Positions 7,725 to 58,474 are shown, counted from the first letter of the stretch. The stretch: 64,000 nt of DNA from an uncultured Aminicenantes bacterium (GCA_965195285.1 CBDAFS010000062.1:128001-192000), one strand, 5' to 3'. A program made the numbers and translations. The notes: generated by a model not told the origin, from the letters alone.

Positions 7725-8519
7725 TTATTTTAATTCAGATTTAAAATTTAGAAGTCCAACTAATTTTTTTGTTTGTTCAAAACTAAGAGCACTATCGGAT
7801 TCCCCTGATAAAACCTTTCCTATCTCAGAAATTATTCTTTGTTCTACTGTCATTTGCATAAACTTAATTTTCTCAATTACCCTATTGTTTAATTCATCAA
7901 TTTCTTTTTCATATAATACATATGGAAGAAGTTGCTCTACTACTGTATCTTTATACCATTCTGCTATTTCACCTTTTTTTTTCCCTTCATCAAGTATATG
8001 ACATATTCGAAATATTAAAGTAACATAGATATCAAAAAGGGAATGTAAAAAGCTACCTATGAAGGGTTTGTATTTTGCTGTGTTGTCAGTGAAATCTGTT
8101 GCGGCTTTTAGAAGGTTGTCAGTTGTAATATAAGAAAAGAGGAACTCAAGCTCAACATTTTTCACTAAGGATGTATAATCTTTTGGCTGAAATAGATCTA
8201 TAACAGTGAATATTGAAGTGAGGTTGCTATATTTAATTTTTATTAGAGCCTCCCAGAATATTTTTATTGCTTTTAGTCTTTGATTAAAGGAAGCAAGATT
8301 AATTGATGTTAAAGTAGATGTTGAAACACGAAGCTGCTCTTTGGCAATTCCATACTCTGCTGTTAATTGAGCTTTTAATGTTAAAAGTTTTTGGGAATAT
8401 TCAAATTCTATGGATTTTTTCAGTCTTTCAGTAATCCAACTTTTTGTAATCCAAATTAGTATAAAATATAAAAACGCGCTTCCTCCCATTGAAACGACTA
8501 TAGTTTCTATATTTGTCAT
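7725..8519 (-). CDS. Hypothetical protein (N-terminal TM, helical), low GC
   Basis: 264-aa ORF with AAGGAG RBS; no family recognised. Confidence 0.7.
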   Translation of the reverse strand: MTNIETIVVSMGGSAFLYFILIWITKSWITERLKKSIEFEYSQKLLTLKAQLTAEYGIAKEQLRVSTSTLTSINLASFNQRLKAIKIFWEALIKIKYSNLTSIFTVIDLFQPKDYTSLVKNVELEFLFSYITTDNLLKAATDFTDNTAKYKPFIGSFLHSLFDIYVTLIFRICHILDEGKKKGEIAEWYKDTVVEQLLPYVLYEKEIDELNNRVIEKIKFMQMTVEQRIISEIGKVLSGESDSALSFEQTKKLVGLLNFKSELK

Positions 8520-8670
8520 AGATTCTCCTTAAATTGAACATGTAACAAATTCATCTCTCACAATGCATTTATATGATAATAATATAGCACATCTGACTTT
8601 GTATTAAAAATATAGAATCGAATAAACTTGAAATTTAATTTCATATCAATATAATTGGAGTGGAGAGATA

Positions 8671-9453
8671 ATGAGTGATGAAACTGGTAAATTTTTTATA
8701 TTCTTAAGTTACATTGATGAAGAAAAGAAAATAGCTGAAGTTTTAAAAGAATGGATTGAAGCAAGTTCTTTAGATCAAATTGAAGTTTTTGCTTATAGTG
8801 ATAAAGAGAGTATTGATCTTGGTGAGGAATGGCATGAGAAAATAATCGATGCACTGAATAGATCAAATTTACTCATTGTATTAAGTAGTGAATTTTCAAT
8901 TGAGAGACCTTGGGTAAATTTTGAATCAGGTGCTGCTTGGATAAAAAAAATTCCAATAATTCCAATATGTCATACCGGAATGTCCAAAGATAGTATACCA
9001 GATCCATATAGAAGAAAACTTGCGATTAATTTGGATGACAAGAATTTTGGACTCACACTTTTTAAAAGTATCATGAAGAAAATAGGTTATAAAGGAGATT
9101 TGAAAACTGATTTTAATAGAATGGAAGAGGAAATTCAATCTGCAAAAAATGAAATTAAGTATGATTTTTCTAGAACGAAATCAGTAAATCGAAAGAATGA
9201 AGTTGATCAATTAGAGCTGTCTGATATGGGGAAAAGTATTCTTAGAATGTTAGCTGACAAAGGAGATTTATATTGTGCTAAGTCAGAATTATATAATGCA
9301 TTTAATGTTCATAATCAAAAAGTCCAAAATGAACTGAACAAATTTAAAAATGATGATTATATAGATTTTCTATATATAGAAAGAAGAGATCAAGATTGTT
9401 ATTATTTAACCCCAAAAGGAACTGATCTTGTTGTGAGATTGAATATTGTTTGA
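8671..9453 (+). CDS. TIR-domain protein with C-terminal winged helix
   Basis: IFLSY, G..W...I..AL..S...IVL.S..S..RPWVNFE.GAA (catalytic Glu retained); C-terminal 'IL..L....K.EL...F...EL..F...YI......YYLTPKG' wHTH pattern. Confidence 0.85.
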   Translation: MSDETGKFFIFLSYIDEEKKIAEVLKEWIEASSLDQIEVFAYSDKESIDLGEEWHEKIIDALNRSNLLIVLSSEFSIERPWVNFESGAAWIKKIPIIPICHTGMSKDSIPDPYRRKLAINLDDKNFGLTLFKSIMKKIGYKGDLKTDFNRMEEEIQSAKNEIKYDFSRTKSVNRKNEVDQLELSDMGKSILRMLADKGDLYCAKSELYNAFNVHNQKVQNELNKFKNDDYIDFLYIERRDQDCYYLTPKGTDLVVRLNIV

Positions 9454-9671
9454 TTAAAAGCAGATTTATGTCTTAATATTCGTTACTCTCACGTTACCCA
9501 ACAGCCCTAAAACTCAATCAAAAATCGTTACTTTTTCGTTAATTGAAGTATCGAAAAGTCAATCATAATCGCTATATACCTATAAGCCGTGTTGATGTTG
9601 ATCTTGTTTAAAAACTCTACATACTTATTGGTGTTTGGATTTGGAGGTTGGGAGACTCTAATAAAAAAAAG

Positions 9672-9762
9672 AGGACAGTTCTAATTTATTATAAGCAAAA
9701 TTTTAAAAACAGAACTGTTCCTTTTTTATTACAATAAAATTAAAAAATTAAAACCCCGTCCC
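9672..9762. repeat. Degenerate inverted repeat AGGACAGTTCT/AGAACTGTTCC plus AAAACCCCGTCCC motif at the island's right edge
   Basis: Copies at 9672-9682, 9711-9721 and 9750-9762; similar to the motifs at 7097-7644. Confidence 0.55.
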
Positions 9763-9812
9763 TTAAAGTGGCCGGGGTTGATTTGGGGGGGGGATTTTAA
9801 TACAATGGATTG

Positions 9813-12161
9813 ATGGCTGAGGCGTATTATTTAAAAGACTTTTCGGAAGATTCGGTCAGGGATCTGATCAAAGAAGTCTATGGTTTGGAGGCCTCGGTTT
9901 CCAAAATGGCTGCCGAGCGGGACTTCAATTACCTGGTCAAAACCGGAGACAAAACTTCCTATGTGTTCAAGATTTCAAACCCGGAAGACAGCCGGGAAAT
10001 AGTAGAAGCCCAGCACCAGGTCCTGAACCACCTGGCCCGGGGGAAGGGTGAGATCAACTGTCCCCAACCAATTGAAACCCGATCCGGTGACACTATTTTC
10101 AGGGTCAGCTGTGGCCCGGACCGAAAATCCTTTTTTTTCCGCCTCTTGACCTTTCTGGAAGGTAAGTTCTACAGCGATCTTGAAGCACATTCTCCCGAAT
10201 TGGAAAAAAACCTGGGTGAATTCCTGGGGGCCATGGACCGGGAGTTAACCGGATTTGTCCACCCGGCCCTGAACCGCTACTTTATCTGGGACCTGAAAAA
10301 TATCAGGGATATCCGCCCCTATCTGAAAGATATTCCGGAGACCGACCGGCGAAACCTGGTATTGCATTTCATTCAGTTATATGAAACCGAGGTGGAACCG
10401 TTCCGCCATCTGCTGCCCTGTTCGGTGATCCACAATGATGCCAATGACCACAATATTCTGGTGGACGATTCCGGCTCCCGGGTAACCGGTATCATTGATT
10501 TCGGTGACATGGTCTACTCCCAGACCGTCAATGAATTAGCCGCCGGCCTGGCCTATGCCATCATGAACAAAACCGACCCGACCAAAACCATGGTCCGGGT
10601 GGTTTCCGGATACCATTGCCAGCGTCCCCTGACAGAAGCGGAGATCGACGCACTGTTTTTTCTGATAGCTGCGCGGCTCAGCATCAGTGTGGCCCTGTCC
10701 GCCCACCGATTGAACCATTCCCCCGGAAATAAATATCTGCAGATTTCTACTGCCCCGGCCTGGGAAACATTAGAACAGCTGGGCCGAATCAATCCCGACC
10801 GGATTACCCTAACCCTGCGCAAAGAGTGTGGGTTTTCACAGGCCGGCATCCGATCGGGACCTTCTGTCAACGAAATCCTCCAATCCCGAAAACAGCGGAT
10901 CGGAAGCACCCTGAGCATTTCCTATCAGAAACCCCTTAAAATGACCCGGGGATATATGCAGTATCTATTCGATAATGAGGGCAAAGAATTTCTGGATACG
11001 GTCAACAATGTCTGCCATGTAGGTCATTGTCACCCCCGGGTGGTGGAAGCCGCCCAGCGCCAGTTCAGCCTGTTAAACACCAACACCCGGTATCTTTATG
11101 ATTCTCTGGTGGACCTGTCTGAATCCCTGTGTAGCACGCTACCCGAACCCCTGAGGGTATGTTATTTTGTGAATTCCGGCAGTGAAGCCAACGAACTGGC
11201 CCTGCGCATCGCCAAGACCTGTACCGGACACAGAGATTTTGTGGTCATCGATCATGCCTATCACGGCAATACCAATGCGGTCATTGAGATCAGCCCCTAT
11301 AAATTCGATGGGCCCGGCGGCACCGGCCAGTCCCCACATGTCCACAAGGTCCGGATGCCCGATACCTACCGGGGTGAATTCCGGGAGGATGATCCAAAAG
11401 CCGGATTAAAATACGGCCGGGATATCGACCAGGCCCTCAGGAAAATCAAACAGACCGGAAAGGGCATTGCCGGGTTTATTGCCGAATCCATCAGCAGTGT
11501 CGGGGGTCAAATATTTCTGCCTGCCCATTATCTCGAATCTATTTACGAACAGGTGCGAAAAGCCGGGGGCCTCTGTATCGCCGATGAAGTCCAGGTGGGG
11601 TTCGGACGGGTGGGCAGCCATTTCTGGGCCTTCGAATTACAGGATGTGGTACCGGATATAGTGACCATGGGCAAACCCATGGGCAACGGCCATCCGATAG
11701 CAGCCGTGGTAACCACTCCCGAGATCGATGCGGCCTTTAACAAGGGCATGGAATACTTCAATACCTTTGGAGGTAATCCCGTGGCCTGCACCATCGGCCT
11801 GTCGGTATTAGAGGTGATCCGGAGCGAAAATCTGCAACAACACGCTTCAGAGGTGGGAAAATATTTCCTCGAACAGCTAGAAGAATTAATGAAGGAGCAC
11901 GATCTGATCGGCGATGTACGGGGATCGGGATTGTTTCTGGGTATCGAACTGGTCCTGGACCGCTCCAGCCTGGAACCGGCTAAAGAACATGCCTATGATA
12001 TTGCCAATCGAATGCGGGAGAACGGAATCCTTATCAGCATCGACGGTCCGCTTCACAATGTGATAAAAATCAAGCCCCCCCTGGTTTTCAATAAAAAGGA
12101 TGCTGACCGCTATGTCGAACAGCTGGACCGGATACTCAACATAAAACGGACATTAGATTGA
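9813..12161 (+). CDS. Fused aminoglycoside-phosphotransferase-like kinase / class III PLP enzyme (hydroxylysine kinase + phospho-lyase-like)
   Basis: N-terminal IHNDANDHN and IIDFGD kinase motifs; C-terminal NNVCHVGH, SGSEAN, DEVQVGFGR, TMGKPMGNG (PLP Lys) and IKIKPP typical of AGXT2L/PHYKPL. Confidence 0.85.
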   Translation: MAEAYYLKDFSEDSVRDLIKEVYGLEASVSKMAAERDFNYLVKTGDKTSYVFKISNPEDSREIVEAQHQVLNHLARGKGEINCPQPIETRSGDTIFRVSCGPDRKSFFFRLLTFLEGKFYSDLEAHSPELEKNLGEFLGAMDRELTGFVHPALNRYFIWDLKNIRDIRPYLKDIPETDRRNLVLHFIQLYETEVEPFRHLLPCSVIHNDANDHNILVDDSGSRVTGIIDFGDMVYSQTVNELAAGLAYAIMNKTDPTKTMVRVVSGYHCQRPLTEAEIDALFFLIAARLSISVALSAHRLNHSPGNKYLQISTAPAWETLEQLGRINPDRITLTLRKECGFSQAGIRSGPSVNEILQSRKQRIGSTLSISYQKPLKMTRGYMQYLFDNEGKEFLDTVNNVCHVGHCHPRVVEAAQRQFSLLNTNTRYLYDSLVDLSESLCSTLPEPLRVCYFVNSGSEANELALRIAKTCTGHRDFVVIDHAYHGNTNAVIEISPYKFDGPGGTGQSPHVHKVRMPDTYRGEFREDDPKAGLKYGRDIDQALRKIKQTGKGIAGFIAESISSVGGQIFLPAHYLESIYEQVRKAGGLCIADEVQVGFGRVGSHFWAFELQDVVPDIVTMGKPMGNGHPIAAVVTTPEIDAAFNKGMEYFNTFGGNPVACTIGLSVLEVIRSENLQQHASEVGKYFLEQLEELMKEHDLIGDVRGSGLFLGIELVLDRSSLEPAKEHAYDIANRMRENGILISIDGPLHNVIKIKPPLVFNKKDADRYVEQLDRILNIKRTLD

Positions 12162-12182: not shown

Positions 12183-13031
12183 TTAAAATTCAACCCCGAA
12201 ACGTTTTCTCAAGGCTAATACAATGATGATCACCAGGATCAGGTGATAGACCAACCAGTGGGTTTTCAATCCTAACAGGGAAACACTCTTGGCCGGATAT
12301 CGGAGAGAAAGGGTGTCGACCGGACCGACATTTTTAATTAATTTTTCAGCCGGATAGATAAAATGGTCGACAGAGGATTTTCCCATTTTTTTGTTCGAAA
12401 GGGATTCCGTATTTTTACCGATCACCAGGTTTTTACTGATTATCTGCTCATTGACCTGAACCCGAATATCAGTATGGCCCGGTTTCAGGCACTTCAACTT
12501 CCAGTTTACTTCACGGATGGGTCTGGTGCGTTCATCATCCTCATAGGCATTGATAAAAACCGGATTCATCACCGGCTTAAAATGGTCGCTGTCCAGCAAC
12601 CGGATTTTCATACCTTTCGGATCGGAATTCAACCGGGCCTTGAATACAAAAATATCGTCCGGTTCAAAGGGCCTCATCCCGTAGCGGATGTCCATTTGAA
12701 CAAATATAGGGAAAAGAATGGGAATGATGATGAGCACGGGACCGATATTCAGCATGAAATACTTCAGGGTATAAAACAGACTTTTAAAAAAAGATCCGGT
12801 AATCACCCTCCAGAAATCTTTGTACAGCCTGATGGCTAATATGCTGGATTTTATTTTATTTTTGGTATCCTTGATCCGGGTCGGAGAAGATATATATTTG
12901 AAGATGACCAGTACGATCAGAGAGATCAAAATGCTCAGAAAGAGAATGGCCAAAAAATCCCCCAAAAATCCAAAAGGGTACAGTATCACATCAAATACTT
13001 TGGTAATGAAAAAATTAACCTGCTGTATCAT
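12183..13031 (-). CDS. Membrane protein, DUF106/EMC3/TMCO1-like, with an inserted soluble domain
   Basis: TM1, basic helical loop, TM2 'NIGPVLIIIPILFPIF', beta-rich insert, terminal TM 'HWLVY...LRKRFGV'. The ORF is secure; the family call is by pattern only. Confidence 0.5.
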   Translation of the reverse strand: MIQQVNFFITKVFDVILYPFGFLGDFLAILFLSILISLIVLVIFKYISSPTRIKDTKNKIKSSILAIRLYKDFWRVITGSFFKSLFYTLKYFMLNIGPVLIIIPILFPIFVQMDIRYGMRPFEPDDIFVFKARLNSDPKGMKIRLLDSDHFKPVMNPVFINAYEDDERTRPIREVNWKLKCLKPGHTDIRVQVNEQIISKNLVIGKNTESLSNKKMGKSSVDHFIYPAEKLIKNVGPVDTLSLRYPAKSVSLLGLKTHWLVYHLILVIIIVLALRKRFGVEF

Positions 13032-13220
13032 TTAGGATATGTATCCCAGCCCGCTCAACTTGTCAGCCTGTTCCTCTTTGTTATCATCGGATTTAATGGT
13101 TTCATATTCCTTATTGATCAGATTATCAATGAGTTCTTCCACCGAAGAATATCCGTGAAAGGCCAGGATCTCATCCACTTTCTGGGCACTTTCATTGCTG
13201 AGTTTTACTTTTTTTGCCAT
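13032..13220 (-). CDS. Small ribbon-helix-helix (CopG-like) protein with C-terminal LxxLGY motif
   Basis: AGGAG RBS; KVKLS-helix-GYSSVEELI-helix; ends in 'DKLSGLGYIS'; directly abuts the next gene. Confidence 0.7.
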   Translation of the reverse strand: MAKKVKLSNESAQKVDEILAFHGYSSVEELIDNLINKEYETIKSDDNKEEQADKLSGLGYIS

Positions 13221-13229
13221 TTCTTTCTC

Positions 13230-15200
13230 CTAAATTAGCGATCTTCCCTTTACCGTAGGAACATTTTCGATCCCGAAATATTTCAGAATGGTCGGGGCAA
13301 CATCCCGGATATGGGGGATTTTGGTATTGATCTTGAAATTTGAAACAAAACTGGCCGGTACATGAACCGGATCGATGAGATGATCTCCGGACCACCAGTC
13401 CATATTATCACTGAGCATCTCTTTGGAAAATCCGCCCAGGGCAGCTCCGTCACCACAGCGGTATCCCTTATTGAATCCCATGATGATATCGGGTGCCCGG
13501 TCAATGAAATCCTTGGAAAAATAATCTTCGGATATATAAGCCTGGGAGATTACCTGTTGTCCGTTCTGAGGATCTTTGATCATTTCCAGCTTGGCCTTGA
13601 TCTCTTCCAGAAGTTTTCTCCTTTCCTCCGGTTTTACAATACCCTGGGCTTCCCGTCCCTTTAAATTCAAGTACAATCCGTTAAGCCCCATGAAATAGGC
13701 CTTGGTGTTGTTCCAATCCCCATACCCTAACAAATCAACATCTTCGGAGATACCATCGACAGTCAGCTTTTGATAACCCTCCTGGTATAACCAGTTGTTT
13801 ATATTTACCTGTCGGCGATAGGGATTGAATCCATGGTCCGAGACTACCAGTATGGAAACATCTTCGGGGCATCTCTTGAGCACATCCCCGAGAATACGGT
13901 CATGCATGCGATAGAGCTCATGGTGGATGTAGCCATATTTCTTCTGGGCTTCGGGCTTATAAAAGGGATGATCCTTGTCATTCAAGGCCCAGCACATGTG
14001 CTGGCCCTGATCCGCCGCCGAAAAATAGAAAAACAGAAATCCGCTCTTCTTCTGAAGAAATCGATCAAACTCATATTTAAAAATCTTCTTACTTTCCTCG
14101 AAAACCGACAGGGACTGAACGATATAGTTTTCCATAGAAAAAGTACCCTGACTCAGGGCTTTGGTATCAGCAGGCAAATTAATGGTATGAAAAAGGCCGC
14201 AGTGCTCAGCCAGTTCCTTGCTGTAAGAAGAAGGAGTGCTGATGGACAGGGCCGGATCCCGGGGACTGATATGAATCGGTGACACATACAGCCTGAATTT
14301 TTCCCCCATCTCCATCAGGTAAAACCTGACCATCCCGGTGACGCTGCTGATGTTTGGAATCAGGGGAAATTTGATTTCCACCCATCCGGATAATTGTTTT
14401 TCGGATAACAATATTTCTTTGCCCTGAACATCTATTCTGGCGGTTTTGTGCTGGTAATCCAGATAGGCGCGGAAGGGGATCTCCACATTTTCACCATCCT
14501 CCACCAGGTCATTTTTGGGGCCTTCAATAATCCCATTCTCCATCACATGATCATCGTTGATGTAAGCATAGTACATGTTGTTGGGTGAAATATCCTTTTC
14601 GGATTCCTCTTCATCCGAGGTAAATAGGGTATATATCCCGTAAGTCCCCATGATGTCCGGGGTACCCATACCGGAAATGGTTCGCTGGTTACTATCCGAA
14701 GGGGGGTAATTATTGGGGATCTTAAAGATGGTGGCATCCACATCCCGTTCTTCGAGGTAATCCCAGAAGGCTTTCCCTTCCCGCTTTAAAACCACTTTTC
14801 CGGATTTCAGGGGTATTTTGTATTTCCCTAACTTTACAATCCATTCGGAGGGAAAGGTCTCGGCCCAGGATGGGATGGGGAAATAATTGTTAGGATCCCG
14901 GTGTACCCAGTCAAAAATACCGAAAGTTCCGGGATCTGATCCGGTGATGAAACTCCCCCAGGCAACCGGGCTGTGGGGAGGGATGGTGGTCCTCATCATG
15001 GTAAAAGTCCCTCTCTGGGCCAGTTTCTTCATATTGGGCATCTGCCCCTGTTGCATCAACCGATAGGTGATCATCGGATCCATGCCATCGATACCCAGAA
15101 CAATCATTTTTTTTGATCCGGGTCCGGCGGAGGCAAAGTTCATGAATGGTGTTGCCGCCAATACCATTCCCGTATTTCGAATAAATTCTCGTCGTCTCAT
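13230..15200 (-). CDS. Tat-signal AlkP-superfamily (type I phosphodiesterase/NPP-like) protein
   Basis: MRRREF Tat motif; VLGIDG, PPHSPVAW, D.GQH, SDHG and GDH metal/nucleophile motifs. Confidence 0.85.
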   Translation of the reverse strand: MRRREFIRNTGMVLAATPFMNFASAGPGSKKMIVLGIDGMDPMITYRLMQQGQMPNMKKLAQRGTFTMMRTTIPPHSPVAWGSFITGSDPGTFGIFDWVHRDPNNYFPIPSWAETFPSEWIVKLGKYKIPLKSGKVVLKREGKAFWDYLEERDVDATIFKIPNNYPPSDSNQRTISGMGTPDIMGTYGIYTLFTSDEEESEKDISPNNMYYAYINDDHVMENGIIEGPKNDLVEDGENVEIPFRAYLDYQHKTARIDVQGKEILLSEKQLSGWVEIKFPLIPNISSVTGMVRFYLMEMGEKFRLYVSPIHISPRDPALSISTPSSYSKELAEHCGLFHTINLPADTKALSQGTFSMENYIVQSLSVFEESKKIFKYEFDRFLQKKSGFLFFYFSAADQGQHMCWALNDKDHPFYKPEAQKKYGYIHHELYRMHDRILGDVLKRCPEDVSILVVSDHGFNPYRRQVNINNWLYQEGYQKLTVDGISEDVDLLGYGDWNNTKAYFMGLNGLYLNLKGREAQGIVKPEERRKLLEEIKAKLEMIKDPQNGQQVISQAYISEDYFSKDFIDRAPDIIMGFNKGYRCGDGAALGGFSKEMLSDNMDWWSGDHLIDPVHVPASFVSNFKINTKIPHIRDVAPTILKYFGIENVPTVKGRSLI

Positions 15201-15233
15201 TTCAAATCCCCTTTGTTTTCATTCCATGACTCT

Positions 15234-17321
15234 TCATTGAACCTTCAGGTTTTTTCCTTCAATAAAGGACGGTGGTTCAATGCCAAAAACAGATAACACC
15301 GTGGGCGAGATATCAAGCAGAGAAGGATCTGCCTCCGATATTTTTTTATTACTGAAAAATATCCCGGGCACCTGTTCTCTGGTCAGGGCATGATCCCCGC
15401 TCCACATCTTCAGGTTATCGGAAAAACACCGATCACCCACATAATTCACGGTGGATTCCCAGGATACCCGGTGGCCGATATTATAGCCCACGACAATATC
15501 CGGTGCATTATCCACATAGGGCCCGCGGTATATTTCTTCCCGCTTGTAAACCGATTTTAAAACCCGGGTACGGGTCTTGTCATCGATCACCTTGAGTAAT
15601 TTATCTTTAATTTCACTTTTGATTTTTTCTGCTTCCGGGCCTCTATTCACGATTCCCTGTTTTTCCCTTCCCTTCATATTGAGGAAAATTCCGTTGAGCC
15701 CCTGGCCATAAGCCCTGGATTTTGACCAGTCAACATCGGCATACCATTTACCGCTTTCCTTTTTACCGTCCTTCAATACCAGATAGCCCTGCTGGTGAAG
15801 CCAGGTATTCAAGTGAAATTCGCGATTGAAGGCATTAAATCCATGGTCGGAAACAATCATCAGCAGGTCATTTTTATTGATGCGGGGTAATAGTTTCCCC
15901 AAAAAATCATCCATGGCCCGGTAGGATTCATAGATGGCATTCACAATATGGCTGTCTTTGGAAGGTTTATCGGCCGGGGAACCGGAATGCTTCAGATACC
16001 TCCAGAACATGTGCTGGATTCGATCGGTTGCCTCAAAAACCTGAACCAGCAGCCCCTGCTTGAATTTCCCGAACGTATTAAAAAATATCTTCTCCCGTTC
16101 TTGCTGGGTATTGTATACCTGCTGAAGAAAAACGTCCTCTGACAGAATCCCTTCGTTTACCGCCCAGGTGTCCTCGGCCTGGCCCAGTGTGGCAAAGGCC
16201 CCCAGTAATTTTGACAGATAAACCGAAAAGATTTTGGGATGGGATACGGGCATGGAAGGTTTTTCCGGGTCAATGTTGATGGGAGACAGATACAGTTTGA
16301 TGGGATCGGTGTCTTCCAAAACCCACTGGGCAATCCCGGATATTTTAATCAATCCGGCCTTAAATTCCAGGGGAATCCAGATTGAGAGTTTTTTGCTCTC
16401 GATCCGGTACTTATCCTTGCCTATCTCAATCTCCCCCGAACCATTGCCCTTATTCAGGGTAAATTTAAAATCCAGCTCCAGGGGGGGATTGCCCCGTACA
16501 AAGGGATTGGCAGGACCTTTGATCGTTCCGGCATAGCAATTTTCATCAGTTTTTTCCAGCTTTTCGTAGATTCCTTCCGAAATATCGAAATCCTTGTCTT
16601 TGCCGTCAGAATAAAAACTAAAACTGCCCTGGGATCCTCTCAAATCAGGAGTACTGAGACCGGAAAGCATGCAACCGTAGAACTTTTCGGCCGGAAAGGT
16701 AAAAGGCACCCGTAAAACAGCTGAATATATCCCCTTGCTGCTGACAATTTTCCAGAAACTTTTGCTCTTGCGCTTCCATTCGATCTTGGGCTTGGAAATG
16801 GGTATGGTCAGCTTTCCGATATTTAACACCCGCTTGGGGGGAAGGATATCGGAACTGGCCAGTTTGGGCATGTAGGTATTCCGGTCCGTGGTTAAAAAAT
16901 CAAAAATATTGTGTTTTCCGGGATTCACCCCGGTAGAAAAGGTCGACCAGGCCACCGGAGAAATGGGGGGTTCCGTACTCCATAATGGAGTGAAGGTGCC
17001 GGATTCGGAAACACGGTCAAAATTCGGGAATGATTTTCCTTCTTTTTTGAACCGCTTCATAAGATTGTAATCCATTCCATCAAAACCCACAACGATCACC
17101 CTTTTATATTTGGCTTTTTTTAAGGTTCGGATCCTTTTCAAGAATTTAAAGAAGGTTCTGACCGGAAAGGTCAGCAGGTTAAAAAAGGCTAAGAAAAAGG
17201 CCACAAATATAAAGAAAAAAGATCCCACAAAAGCAAAACCCGCTCCGGGCCCCACATAGGAAAATATAGGACAGACCAGAAATAAAAGCGAGAGGAATAC
17301 GATAACCTTTACTTTTCTCAT
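15234..17321 (-). CDS. Membrane-anchored AlkP-superfamily (type I phosphodiesterase/NPP-like) protein
   Basis: Start reassigned to ATG 17321; signal peptide, YVGPGAG and TM; VGFDG, PPISPVAW, DRIQH, SDHG and GDH motifs; paralogue of the downstream gene. Confidence 0.85.
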   Translation of the reverse strand: MRKVKVIVFLSLLFLVCPIFSYVGPGAGFAFVGSFFFIFVAFFLAFFNLLTFPVRTFFKFLKRIRTLKKAKYKRVIVVGFDGMDYNLMKRFKKEGKSFPNFDRVSESGTFTPLWSTEPPISPVAWSTFSTGVNPGKHNIFDFLTTDRNTYMPKLASSDILPPKRVLNIGKLTIPISKPKIEWKRKSKSFWKIVSSKGIYSAVLRVPFTFPAEKFYGCMLSGLSTPDLRGSQGSFSFYSDGKDKDFDISEGIYEKLEKTDENCYAGTIKGPANPFVRGNPPLELDFKFTLNKGNGSGEIEIGKDKYRIESKKLSIWIPLEFKAGLIKISGIAQWVLEDTDPIKLYLSPINIDPEKPSMPVSHPKIFSVYLSKLLGAFATLGQAEDTWAVNEGILSEDVFLQQVYNTQQEREKIFFNTFGKFKQGLLVQVFEATDRIQHMFWRYLKHSGSPADKPSKDSHIVNAIYESYRAMDDFLGKLLPRINKNDLLMIVSDHGFNAFNREFHLNTWLHQQGYLVLKDGKKESGKWYADVDWSKSRAYGQGLNGIFLNMKGREKQGIVNRGPEAEKIKSEIKDKLLKVIDDKTRTRVLKSVYKREEIYRGPYVDNAPDIVVGYNIGHRVSWESTVNYVGDRCFSDNLKMWSGDHALTREQVPGIFFSNKKISEADPSLLDISPTVLSVFGIEPPSFIEGKNLKVQ

Positions 17322-17431: not shown

Positions 17432-17890
17432 CTATCTTGTTTGGTGTTTCTGACATTGGTTGCAAAACCCTTCTAAAATTACCTTCTTGCTCAACACCCG
17501 GTATTGTTTTTTCAGAACCGGGGGAATCTTCAGGTTATCATAGGCCGGATGGTAGATATCAATGATGTCATCGCAGCGAAGACATCTGAAATGGTGATGA
17601 TCCGACAGATTGGGATCAAAACGGCGCGGATTGCCATAACCTTCCACGACTCTCACGATTCCGACTTTTGAAAAAGTCAACAGGGTTCGGTTCACCGTGT
17701 CAAATGAAATATTGGGAAAAATCTTTTTGGCCCTTTTAAACAGTTTTTCCGCACTGGGATGTTCTCTGGATTCGACCAGTTCCCGGTATAACATCAACCG
17801 CTGCGGGGTCAATTTCAGCTTATGCTGTTTACACTTCTCGATAAAACGATCCATATCAAGATCCCGGTCACCAAATTCATCTTTTTTCAT
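17432..17890 (-). CDS. Fur-family regulator (PerR-like)
   Basis: TPQR, HPSAE, RFD, HHHFRCLRC and C-terminal CxxC. Confidence 0.9.
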   Translation of the reverse strand: MKKDEFGDRDLDMDRFIEKCKQHKLKLTPQRLMLYRELVESREHPSAEKLFKRAKKIFPNISFDTVNRTLLTFSKVGIVRVVEGYGNPRRFDPNLSDHHHFRCLRCDDIIDIYHPAYDNLKIPPVLKKQYRVLSKKVILEGFCNQCQKHQTR

Positions 17891-17978: not shown

Positions 17979-18380
17979 CTAAAAGTGATAGAGGTCAAAG
18001 AGGGTTAAAATTCCGTAAACCACTCCGATCAGCAACATCACGCTTAAAATGATCAACACCCATCCATATTCAAATTGTCCCCTGGAATCCCAGGACAGGG
18101 TATCTAAAAACTGATGATATTCTTGAGACGGATTGGGAATCCGGACGCCCAGTTCGGTTGAACGCTTCCGCGGACCCTGGTTGCGAACCCATTGAATGAT
18201 ACCCTGAAAGTTCAGGTTTTTATTCTCCGCTTTCAGGGCGATATCGATATCGCGGGGAGTTTTGGAAAGTGGGGTGGACACCCTGAGACCATTCCGGGAA
18301 ATATCAACCAGGGTGCCGGGCTTATTATTGACCTTTAGAATCATGTTTTTTTTGATTCGTTTGTATTTACGTCTATCCAT
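17979..18380 (-). CDS. PilZ-domain protein with C-terminal TM
   Basis: RRKYKR and DISRNG c-di-GMP-binding motifs; hydrophobic C-terminus. Confidence 0.8.
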   Translation of the reverse strand: MDRRKYKRIKKNMILKVNNKPGTLVDISRNGLRVSTPLSKTPRDIDIALKAENKNLNFQGIIQWVRNQGPRKRSTELGVRIPNPSQEYHQFLDTLSWDSRGQFEYGWVLIILSVMLLIGVVYGILTLFDLYHF

Positions 18381-18479
18381 ATCTGTCGACTCCAAATATT
18401 TTATATCATAATAAAATCAAAAATCAACAGAAATAGTGTTAAAAATTATTTTTATTTATATCCGGACAATCGGAATCAA

Positions 18480-56302: not shown

Positions 56303-58474
56303 TCAATGACTGACCTCGCTGATCAAGCGATCCAGTCGATTCCGATCACCGGGGGACAATCTACGGTATAATCTTTTTTTACACCGGGAAAAATAATGAA
56401 GGGCCAAATCTTTATCTCCGGATTTCAGATATGAGACACCAATATTGAAATAGGAATCTGCAAAATCCGGATTGCTATTAATGGCTTTCTTCCAATCCTC
56501 CTGAGCCAGGCTCAGGTTATTCTTGAAAAAATAGGCCGATGCCCTTCCATTCAACGCCGAATAGAGAACCGGATCTATCTCCAGAGCCTTATTAAAATTC
56601 CGCATGGCCATCTCGTATGCCCTTTCATCACGATTTTTTTGATAGACCACCAGGTAAAGGGAACCCATGTTGTTGTACCCCGGGGCATAGTTATGATCCA
56701 GCTCCAGGACTTGACGGTACCGGGCCAGCGCGGATTTAAAATCACCCTTTTTAAAGTAGGCCACTCCCAGGTAATTAAACACCTCGGGATCATATTGGTC
56801 TTCCTTAACACACAGCTCCAACAGGGATATGGCTTCATCGATGATACCGGCCTCGGTCAGCATAATCCCCAGTTTGGACATGAGGTTCACATTGCCGGGG
56901 TTTTTTTCCAGGCCCTGTCTTAAAATTTTTACCGCGTTTTTCACCTGGCCAATATTTTTATATATGCTTGCCATATTCCGGTAAACCAGTATAAAAGAGG
57001 GACTCTTCTCCACCACTTCCATCAATCCTTTCAGGGCATCGCTGTATTTTCCCCTCTGGTAGGCATCCAGGGCATCCAGCATTTTATTCTGAAGGGGCAG
57101 CAGGGTTTTAAGATCATCGGCCCGGGTAAAATTCTTTTTCCGGGTTGATGATCTTCCTGAAAGGTAGCCCAGGGTTTCCAGTTTCTTACGGGTGTCCGGA
57201 TCTATTTTTTTGGATCGGTTCAGCCTCAAATCGCCTTCCAATTGATTCCGAAGCTTTTTCAAGTCCGCCTTGAATTTTTTTATTTCGATCTCAGCAGCCA
57301 GGTTGGAATTTTCCTGAATATCCTGGCGCAGGTCATAAACCTCTTCGATGGGTAAGTTAATGAACTTGATATCTTCCTGAATGAAACCCCGGAGCGGTGC
57401 CCATCCACGATTCAAGTAAGGGGTCATGGACTCAAAATATATTTTTTTCTGCTGGCGCTTGCCGCCTCTGATGATAGGCAACAATGATTCCCCCTGCAGG
57501 TGGGCGGGGATTTTATAGTCGAGAAGGTCGCAAATGGTGGGAAATATGTCTGTATGGCACACATTCTCCTCAATGAATCCCCCGCTGGTCTCGGGAATAT
57601 GAATGATCAGGGGAATCAGAATGGTGTTATTGTAGGCAAAATAGGCATGGGTTTTTTCTCCTTTTTCTCCCAGGGCCTCGCCATGATCACCGGTTATGAT
57701 GATTAGGGTATCGGAATTCAACTTCCGGTCCGAAAGAAAATCAAAAAGTATTCCCAGCTGAGTGTCCACATAGGCCACTTCTCCGGAATACAAATCATGT
57801 TCATACTGTTTATCATAGGGAGCCGGGGGCAGGTAGGGTTGATGGGGATCAAACAGATGAATCCAGGCAAACCATTTTGACTGTTGCCCGGAGATCCAGT
57901 TAACCGACCGTTCGATTACTTCTTCGGCCCTTCTCTCCACAAAGAAGAAATCCATGCTGCTGTGGGTACCGTAATCATCATCATACAAATCAAAACCCTG
58001 AGCCAGACCAAAACGGGAATCCAGGGGAAAAGCACCGATAAAGGCCGCTGTTTCATACTTTTTCTCTTTCAGGTATTCAGCCACGGATAAAAATTTATCT
58101 TCCAATATAAACCCGGAATTGTCTGCGATACCGTGATAAAGGGGAGTGGTTCCGGTTAAAATATTGACATGGGAAGGCAACGTAACCGGATTGTGGGAAA
58201 AGGCCCGTTTGAACACAAAGGATTTTCGGGCAATCCCATCTAAATGGGGAGTTTTCACATATTGAGAATTCACAATGCCCAGGCGGTCATATCGCCAGGT
58301 ATCAATTGTAATCAGTAATACGTTGTAATTGTTTTTACGGACAAAATTGATTTTTTTGCTCCCGGAAACTTTTCCGGTTACCCCGGCAGCGGTATTACTG
58401 TCCCGGCAGCAGAAAAAAGATACAGCAAAAAAAACGATAGCCAGGAATTTAAAAATTTTCATCAACAAATTCAA
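56303..58474 (-). CDS. Sulfatase-like hydrolase/transferase with TPR repeats (lipoprotein)
   Basis: LITIDTWR.D, TLPSH..ILTG, DPH.PY, GDHGE and LETLGY, then TPRs; start may be 58462. Confidence 0.88.
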   Translation of the reverse strand: MNLLMKIFKFLAIVFFAVSFFCCRDSNTAAGVTGKVSGSKKINFVRKNNYNVLLITIDTWRYDRLGIVNSQYVKTPHLDGIARKSFVFKRAFSHNPVTLPSHVNILTGTTPLYHGIADNSGFILEDKFLSVAEYLKEKKYETAAFIGAFPLDSRFGLAQGFDLYDDDYGTHSSMDFFFVERRAEEVIERSVNWISGQQSKWFAWIHLFDPHQPYLPPAPYDKQYEHDLYSGEVAYVDTQLGILFDFLSDRKLNSDTLIIITGDHGEALGEKGEKTHAYFAYNNTILIPLIIHIPETSGGFIEENVCHTDIFPTICDLLDYKIPAHLQGESLLPIIRGGKRQQKKIYFESMTPYLNRGWAPLRGFIQEDIKFINLPIEEVYDLRQDIQENSNLAAEIEIKKFKADLKKLRNQLEGDLRLNRSKKIDPDTRKKLETLGYLSGRSSTRKKNFTRADDLKTLLPLQNKMLDALDAYQRGKYSDALKGLMEVVEKSPSFILVYRNMASIYKNIGQVKNAVKILRQGLEKNPGNVNLMSKLGIMLTEAGIIDEAISLLELCVKEDQYDPEVFNYLGVAYFKKGDFKSALARYRQVLELDHNYAPGYNNMGSLYLVVYQKNRDERAYEMAMRNFNKALEIDPVLYSALNGRASAYFFKNNLSLAQEDWKKAINSNPDFADSYFNIGVSYLKSGDKDLALHYFSRCKKRLYRRLSPGDRNRLDRLISEVSH

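Follow-up and report, generated by a model that had tools for sequence, protein, structure and literature searches.

Proteins of the DUF106 type (PF01956), among them MJ0480/Ylp1, EMC3, TMCO1 and Get1, share a plan of a peripheral helix, a first transmembrane (TM) helix, a basic cytoplasmic hairpin and two further TM helices. The available parts of two accounts describe DUF106 proteins as archaeal and eukaryotic (PMC5868721, PMC7618853). Bacterial YidC (PF02096; B. halodurans YidC2, 3wo7) is built on the Oxa1 fold core and, according to the available part of a preprint, carries an extra TM hairpin between the last two core helices (bioRxiv 10.1101/2020.12.20.422553). A stretch of 64,000 nucleotides from an uncultured Aminicenantes bacterium (GCA_965195285.1, CBDAFS010000062.1:128001-192000; the window) was found to carry, at positions 12,183 to 17,321, a module of four genes, here called A to D, the last of which encodes a bacterial member of the Oxa1 superfamily. 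A and B encode paralogous enzymes of the alkaline phosphatase (AlkP) superfamily that resemble nucleotide pyrophosphatases/phosphodiesterases (NPPs), and C encodes a small protein similar to ribbon-helix-helix (RHH) proteins.

Each protein departs from its closest described relatives. Unlike MJ0480, EMC3 and TMCO1, D is bacterial, has an immunoglobulin (Ig)-like beta domain of ∼135 residues in place of the short loop between TM2 and TM3, and has its gene in an enzyme operon instead of being a stand-alone general factor; an insertase role for it is putative. D has the Oxa1 fold core in common with YidC but, judged against the available part of the same preprint, it lacks the bacterial TM hairpin, having three TM helices instead of five, and its beta domain sits exactly where that hairpin is found. 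A and B share PF01663, the Asp/His ligands and a hydroxyl nucleophile with the NPP/PafA/phosphonoacetate hydrolase clade (5tj3, 3q3q, 5tcd, 2gsn and 1ei6); unlike in that clade, the nucleophile is a Ser in PP-x-SPVAW, there is a beta-rich insert of ∼200 residues, and one paralogue (A) stands on a hairpin anchor and is predicted to face the cytoplasm. C has a strand-helix-G-Y-S-S-helix pattern that weakly resembles CopG and the NikR N-terminal domain, but differs from these RHH proteins in an acidic linker and an invariant GLGYIS tail, which it has in common with AlkP-fold enzymes.

Conservation of the four-gene module

The initial annotation, made from the window's sequence, described four tightly packed, co-oriented genes with gaps of 33, 9 and 0 bp (A/B, B/C and C/D), and the coordinates of the open reading frames (ORFs) on the minus strand agree with this (Table 1). 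Conservation was assessed in two sets of loci. The first comprised 18 loci from public species genomes retrieved with D as the query. The second comprised 20 loci with long contigs, which we selected among 58 strongly D-positive Acidobacteriota genomes; a profile built from 48 D relatives had detected D in 60 of the 201 sampled genomes of the phylum, in 58 of them strongly. The 201-genome tally and the D-positive counts include one unpublished genome (G049).

The order A-B-C-D was present in 18 loci of the second set, with A-C-D in one and a truncated A followed by B-C-D in the remaining one, and the four-gene order was conserved over many families of the Acidobacteriota. In the first set, C plus an A- or B-type gene directly preceded D in all 18 loci: three close relatives carried both A and B, one locus an A-type gene only, and 14 a B-type gene. 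Eight of these 14 had enough upstream sequence to rule out an adjacent A, and a divergent ComEC gene was found upstream in all six of the eight that were scanned. An unlinked full-length A (67 to 69% identical) was encoded elsewhere in four of five such genomes, adjoining an acetate kinase-like gene and a PilZ gene. The expected co-occurrence of the four genes was thus borne out across the phylum and needs correction for the closest class-level relatives, in which the linked unit is usually B-C-D and A is encoded elsewhere. Across both sets, C was present in 38/38 loci, and C-D directly followed an A- or B-type gene in every one. This arrangement is far beyond chance. The module is real, conserved and composed as initially proposed, and D is a member of the Oxa1 superfamily.

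One alternative is an ordinary phosphate-scavenging NPP pair lying beside two small unrelated genes. PF01663 is common, with 23 matches in this genome, and many of its members are secreted phosphatases. Such a pairing is nevertheless extremely unlikely, as many families of the phylum share the order of the four genes, C and D were never apart from the enzymes in the 38 loci, and the catalytic domain of A is predicted to be cytoplasmic.

The D family is large, with 1,292 cluster representatives at E values up to 0.001, of which 659 have E values no higher than 1e-10. By source names, its closest relatives belong to the Aminicenantes lineage of the Acidobacteriota; look-alike clusters are labelled Planctomycetota. 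The search of representatives also yielded a Myxococcales fusion protein, in which one extra TM segment joins D to an exported sulfatase domain and an LGY tail closes the chain. No longer forms of C were found, and the D-profile search found no longer forms either.

Damaged copies of the module were also seen. In one (L024, 7026-8003) a DDE transposase gene lies between C and D, in another (L034, 9250-10089) A is shortened to 279 aa, and in a third (L008, 7827-9796) B is broken into three frames.

Protein D, a bacterial Oxa1-superfamily protein

Neither C nor D of the window was assigned to a Pfam or NCBIfam family. The initial annotation had called D Oxa1-superfamily-like, and two lines of evidence support the assignment. 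When the profile of 48 D relatives was searched against PDB sequences, it matched MJ0480 (5c8j) over positions 8 to 120 with an E value of 1.9e-7 (34 bits). The match spans TM1, the hairpin and TM2, and a weak second stretch aligns TM3, including an invariant Trp. The structural model of D (predicted local distance difference test [pLDDT] score, 95.6) contains helices at residues 2-20, 25-47, 50-69, 74-117 and 259-274, giving a layout of peripheral helix, TM1, helical hairpin and TM2, with a beta-sandwich (residues 127-257) between TM2 and TM3. A fold scan independent of Foldseek placed chain 8 of 7tut first, with a Z score of 11.3 over 136 residues (root mean square deviation [rmsd], 3.7), 3.4 Z above the next row; YidC (3wo7) gave a Z score of 7.7 over 150 residues (rmsd, 7.1). 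7tut is a multipass-translocon entry; the Oxa1-type subunit of that complex is TMCO1, which we take chain 8 to be. Foldseek of the D model against the PDB returned weak Ig-like rows only, none at E values up to 0.001.

PF01956 itself was matched by 6/48 D relatives at E values up to 1 (best, 2e-5), and one source gives some of the relatives the name "DUF106 family". Residues 45-95 of D, around the hairpin that would be cytoplasmic in an N-out/C-in topology, hold 11 Lys/Arg against 2 Asp/Glu. Conserved residues of the Ig-like domain are W177, G185, K200, P227 and Y245. D belongs to the Oxa1 superfamily and is of the archaeal/eukaryotic DUF106/EMC3 type.

Within D, at 12382-12492, two contigs (X2 from a DNA run and X18 from an RNA library) agree closely with the sequence on either side, and in place of this stretch have a diverged one that is equally long (111 bases). 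This patch in the C-terminal part looks like a strain variant or a recombined segment.

Enzymes A and B

The two large proteins had been proposed to be paralogous NPP-like enzymes with a common nucleophile motif and a large central insert. All of this held. A and B scored 98.9 and 117.2 bits against PF01663 (cut-off, 23) and are 34% identical over 629 residues (E 7e-125), the PPxSPVAW motif was found in both by alignment, and in each protein PF01663 was matched in two stretches on either side of an insert. Among 25 A orthologues, D81, D433, H437, D492, H493 and H644 are invariant and S121 is conserved in at least 90%; among 24 B orthologues, D38, S77, D397, H401, D455, H456 and H607 are invariant. 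From knowledge of the family, we take the Asp and His residues to be metal ligands and the Ser to be the nucleophile, so that both enzymes appear to retain a complete two-metal/Ser-nucleophile site. The formylglycine-sulfatase signature C/S-x-P-x-R is absent from A and B, which have S-P-V-A-W at that place, and PF00884 matched A only below threshold (16.3 bits; cut-off, 25). The model of A (pLDDT, 82.4) resembles NPP/PafA-type folds (Foldseek E values of 6e-10 to 1e-7); the nearest are PafA, SPAP, ENPP7, Xanthomonas (Xac) NPP and phosphonoacetate hydrolase, at 9 to 12% identity.

The N termini suggest different destinations. In agreement with the initial annotation of a Sec-type signal, YVGPGAG, a TM helix and a very basic stretch, A begins with a hydrophobic segment, YVGPGAG and a second hydrophobic helix followed by 10 Lys/Arg without an acidic residue. 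The same order recurs in 25 orthologues, in which the first segment usually ends in small-x-small, the turn reads Y-x-G-P-G-A-G, and the polybasic helix, with about 10 Lys/Arg and no acidic residue, runs straight into the catalytic domain. The model has the layout seen in the sequence (helix at residues 2-20, loop at 22-27 and helix at 25-69). Given the positive-inside rule and two membrane passes (a single one if the signal is cleaved), this procoat-like hairpin would place the catalytic domain of A in the cytoplasm. M13 procoat is a classical YidC-only substrate, and the hairpin of A resembles such substrates.

For B, a twin-arginine translocation (Tat) signal had been proposed. Read by eye, B of the window and of the Aminicenantes orthologues does start with MRRREFIRNTG, followed by a hydrophobic stretch and FASA; among the other orthologues, the signals looked Tat-like in three, lipobox-like in 10 and Sec-like in five, with one unresolved. 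With a Tat-like signal in the window and lipoprotein- or Sec-type signals in other genomes, B is predicted to be exported. The suggestion that the paired enzymes lie on opposite membrane faces is thus consistent with the N termini of the 25 A orthologues and the export signals of B, and A and B probably work on opposite sides of the membrane.

The anchor of A also invites another explanation of the module, that D is a private insertase or assembly chaperone for the hairpin, with A and B acting as independent hydrolases and nothing transferred across the membrane. A might then clear 3'-phosphoadenosine 5'-phosphate (PAP), adenosine 5'-phosphosulfate (APS) or nucleotide by-products inside the cell, while B scavenges esters outside. 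The basic hairpin of its family, predicted to be cytoplasmic, is kept in D, genomes that have D also have A where the two genes are not linked, and the anchor is of the YidC/Oxa1 substrate class as the available part of PMC5868721 describes it. We consider this explanation possible but somewhat unlikely: in Aminicenantes-type loci D stays linked to B and C rather than to A, the genome already encodes a canonical YidC, and a conserved Ig-like domain, predicted to be periplasmic, is not obviously needed for a substrate with a 7-residue loop.

Protein C and the LGY tail

The proposal that C is an RHH-"LGY" protein is supported by an invariant tail and a weakly RHH-like body. G23, Y24, L55, G57, L58, G59, Y60 and S62 are invariant among relatives, and the tail reads L-x-G-L-G-Y-[IL]-S, always ending at the stop codon. 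Ahead of it, the body consists of a strand, a helix, GYSS and a second helix, and C also carries an acidic linker. RHH similarity is weak: RHH_1 (PF01402) was matched by 15/36 C relatives at E values up to 1 (best, 0.0032), C of the window itself gave no RHH match, and the C profile reached the RHH domain of NikR at an E value of 0.08, all these matches being under the curated thresholds. Clusters of C in the Atlas are automatically named as CopG family.

The tail is not confined to C. In this genome, LGY[ILVM] within the last 12 residues was found in 17 of 15,614 ORFs, comprising 11 exported sulfatase-like/PF01663 enzymes, C itself, one ABC-ATPase-like protein and four ORFs in which it looked like a chance occurrence. 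The 11 enzymes share an extended tail, (D/E)-x-hydrophobic-x-x-L-K-x-L-G-Y-[ILV], behind a basic linker. Three of them were scanned against Pfam and matched PF00884 and PF01663, and the others coincide with PF01663 matches of the genome. The tail was found in none of the A or B orthologues. Because at least 11 AlkP-fold enzymes carry it in cis and A and B do not, C looks like the tail supplied in trans on an RHH-like body. Solved sulfatases aligned to one LGY-tailed sulfatase-like protein (L055) only up to residue 415 of 435, and therefore say nothing about the tail.

LGY-tailed enzymes are encoded on contigs C3, C6, C12, C22, C43 and C59 of this genome (G000). Several have T-A-P-S-T where sulfatases carry C/S-x-P-x-R and may not be true sulfatases. 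In a sulfatase-TPR protein of the window (56303-58474), the LGY motif is internal, just before the TPR repeats.

The four proteins had been suggested to form a dedicated complex, A and B possibly as a heterodimer, and a three-chain prediction covered A (residues 73-695), D and C, with C being scored. The score for C was 0.56 (0.56, 0.51 and 0.56 in individual runs) compared with 0.00 for the best of three controls, and replacing A while keeping D, a further candidate receptor of LGY tails, gave 0.00. At least 87% of the contacts agreed between runs, and the partner pLDDT was at least 73. In the calibration, from which this run differs in its three chains and its own alignments, the mark was reached by 58/80 solved complexes and 2/110 mismatches; scores at the mark but no higher than 0.60 came from only 7 of the 80 solved complexes and from both passing mismatches. 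The prediction thus lends weak support to one contact of the putative complex, that between A and C; C probably docks on A through its tail.

C could also be mainly an RHH transcription factor that autoregulates the operon; A would bind its tail as a sequestration handle, and the C left free would signal what state the enzyme is in. The matches to RHH_1 and NikR, the CopG cluster names, the lack of a signal peptide and a predicted contact that depends on A would all fit this role. It appears doubtful as the main function of C, since every RHH match falls under its curated threshold and C and D are abutted or nearly so in most loci, which would suit a stoichiometric subunit; it is also compatible with the explanation preferred below. 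Two further roles of C, that of a Tat chaperone or hitch-hiker on B and that of a tail split off from B, were rejected on the ground that lipoprotein- or Sec-type signals prevail among B orthologues outside the Aminicenantes.

Linkage to sulfation genes

In 6/20 loci of the second set, Sat or CysDN and/or APS kinase genes lie directly upstream of A and are co-oriented with it, and in four more a sulfotransferase gene lies in the direct flank (Table 1), so that sulfate-activation or sulfotransferase genes flank 10/20 loci. A small signal-less PF01663 paralogue is encoded upstream of A in 6/20 loci, directly adjacent in five of these, and a further sulfatase-family gene lies beside the module in 6/20. 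APS kinase was encoded in 58/58 D-positive genomes against 82/143 of the others by hand cross-tabulation (57/57 without the unpublished G049); in 15/58, its gene shares a contig with D at a distance of no more than 10 kb.

The genome of the window itself encodes Sat and APS kinase. Elsewhere in it (G000:C58:3000-22000, L058), a small PF01663 paralogue heads a polysaccharide-type cluster with a NusG-like gene, three same-strand sulfotransferases, two methyltransferases and six GT4 glycosyltransferases. A fourth sulfotransferase match, a weak one, is found upstream of it on the other strand. Taken together, the recurrent sulfation neighbours favour sulfo-ester chemistry over phosphodiester chemistry of a generic kind.

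The initial annotation had envisaged envelope modification or phosphodiester transfer, and EptA, LtaS, OpgB and BcsG are AlkP-fold phospho-group transferases that offer a comparison. On this alternative the module would add phosphoethanolamine, phosphoglycerol or phosphocholine to the envelope, and the sulfation neighbours would be coincidental in polysaccharide loci. It agrees with the PF01663 membership of A and B, with their Ser nucleophile without C-x-P-x-R, with nearest folds that are phosphatases and phosphodiesterases, and with PilZ genes that lie close to A in the window and, in four genomes, next to an unlinked A. We judge it improbable, because no known transferase of this kind acts anywhere but at the outer face, so that a cytoplasm-facing paralogue would go unexplained, and because the recurrent co-oriented neighbours are sulfate-activation and not phospholipid genes.

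In one genome (L061, 7355-9556; L022, 24-1556), a 733-aa fusion of a class-V aminotransferase-like domain and an AIR-synthase-related (SelD/ThiL-like) domain is encoded between the sulfate-activation genes and A.

Surroundings and expression of the module in the window

Upstream of the module in the window lie genes for a Fur/PerR-family regulator, a PilZ-domain protein and an Nramp protein. The top NCBIfam match of the regulator is PerR, at 101.6 bits and under its cut-off; its gene was absent from the scanned flanks of the other module loci and is not a conserved neighbour. The PilZ-domain gene lies at 17979-18395, and four related genomes (L045-L048) have another small PilZ gene, distinct from this one, immediately after their unlinked A orthologue. 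PilZ genes near A hint at control by cyclic di-GMP.

Promoter-like sites occurred at chance level (14 found, 14.2 expected), and terminator-like sites were placed uninformatively (20 found, 10.9 expected). Metatranscriptomic contigs from two studies overlap parts of the D, B, A, Fur, PilZ and Nramp genes, and a 508-base RNA-library contig, with two differences, bridges the A-B junction. Such libraries may contain DNA, and a contig that spans two genes does not show a single transcript, so these contigs are a hint of expression only.

Convergent to D, at 9810-12161, is a gene for a 783-aa fusion of an APH-type phosphotransferase domain and a class-III aminotransferase, whose position is conserved in the two closest loci (L001 and L002). 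Between this neighbour and unannotated ORFs, a TIR-domain protein (TIR_2; weak ThsB_TIR match) is encoded at 8671-9453 in an AT-rich island (GC, 0.31 at 8001-10000); it may be a defence gene.

Table 1. Positions of the module genes and their parts in the window, and sulfation genes at module loci of the second set
Feature	Position	Strand	Description
Gene A	15234..17321	minus	695 aa, ATG at 17321; membrane-anchored NPP-like AlkP-superfamily enzyme (anchor predicted)
A N-terminal anchor, residues 1-72	17106..17321	minus	Signal-like helix, turn, TM helix, polybasic juxtamembrane helix (predicted)
A invariant Y-x-GPGAG turn	17238-17258	minus	Y22 and G24-G28 invariant in 25 orthologues
Gene B	13230..15200	minus	656 aa; paralogue of A, predicted to be exported
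B putative twin-arginine signal	about 15123-15200	minus	From sequence, by eye
Gene C	13032..13220	minus	62 aa; RHH-like, without signal peptide
C invariant tail L-x-GLGY-I-S	13035-13058	minus	Alignment of relatives
Gene D	12183..13031	minus	282 aa; Oxa1-superfamily (DUF106/EMC3/TMCO1-type) membrane protein
D H0-TM1-basic hairpin-TM2	12678-13031	minus	Model and profile
D Ig-like beta domain	about 12261-12674	minus	Model; weak Ig-like matches
D TM3	about 12204-12260	minus	Model
Fur/PerR-family regulator gene	17432..17890	minus	Directly upstream of A; PF01475, 80.5 bits
L060/L020	Directly upstream of A, co-oriented		APS kinase, CysD, CysN
L061	Directly upstream of A, co-oriented		Sat, small NPP, APS kinase, second small NPP
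L069/L021	Directly upstream of A, co-oriented		CysD, CysN, small NPP
L071	Directly upstream of A, co-oriented		APS kinase, small NPP
L072/L025	Directly upstream of A, co-oriented		Sat, APS kinase, small NPP
L019	Directly upstream of A, co-oriented		APS kinase
L032, L033, L034, L035	Direct flank of module		Sulfotransferase

Proposed function and significance

The observed gene order, conservation, family membership, catalytic residues and sulfation linkage are best accommodated, tentatively, by a conserved four-protein inner-membrane module for two-sided sulfo- or phospho-ester transfer acting downstream of sulfate activation; the topology, the contact between A and C and the entire chemistry are inferred. 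A would be held on the cytoplasmic face by its procoat-like hairpin and act at the inner leaflet, and B, the exported paralogue, would act at the outer face. C would be a small cytoplasmic RHH-like protein, most likely docking on A. D may insert or assemble the hairpin of A or may form the membrane link between the two sides, with its Ig-like domain in the periplasm. Transfer from inside to outside is suggested by the combination of neighbours from the 3'-phosphoadenosine 5'-phosphosulfate (PAPS) pathway, a cytoplasm-facing, membrane-held A and an exported B. The module would lie downstream of APS/PAPS, and its product would be a sulfated envelope or extracellular molecule.

Several observations weigh against this proposal. 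In the window, no sulfation gene lies near the module, whose neighbours are the Fur/PerR, PilZ and Nramp genes, and 10/20 loci have no sulfation gene in the scanned flanks. APS kinase is common in the phylum (140/201) and related genomes are not independent, so its co-occurrence with D is suggestive only. The topology of A and B comes from the positive-inside rule and from reading signals by eye, the predicted A-C contact is only weakly supported, and C may be no more than a DNA-binding regulator. Within the NPP branch of A and B, no member has a known substrate, and phmmer searches of PDB sequences found no relative of B of the window or of an LGY-tailed paralogue (L054). D of the window did not match PF01956 at E values up to 1, nor was D found by a six-frame search of its own genome with PF01956.

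A more specific form of the proposal, a transmembrane relay of sulfuryl (or phosphoryl) groups from A to a carrier, through D and on to B, is an unlikely one. A would take the group from PAPS or APS onto its serine at the inner leaflet and hand it to a membrane carrier, the hydrophilic groove of D would let the charged head group cross, and B would deliver the group to an acceptor outside the cytoplasm. C, as a detachable "LGY" tail, would gate or assemble A.

A literature search, with most subscription journals lying outside it, found no description of the module or of bacterial DUF106-type proteins, so that a prior mention is possible. D represents a large bacterial branch of three-TM Oxa1-type proteins locked in an enzyme operon, which bears on the evolution and roles of the insertase fold. 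The "LGY" tail, detachable in the form of C, is an unexplained motif common to many AlkP-fold enzymes. PAPS is made only inside the cell, and the pairing of A and B beside sulfate-activation genes offers a testable candidate for how bacteria could sulfate extracytoplasmic molecules. The relay, if true, would be the first bacterial pathway for extracytoplasmic sulfation and would give the Oxa1 fold its first job other than that of an insertase.

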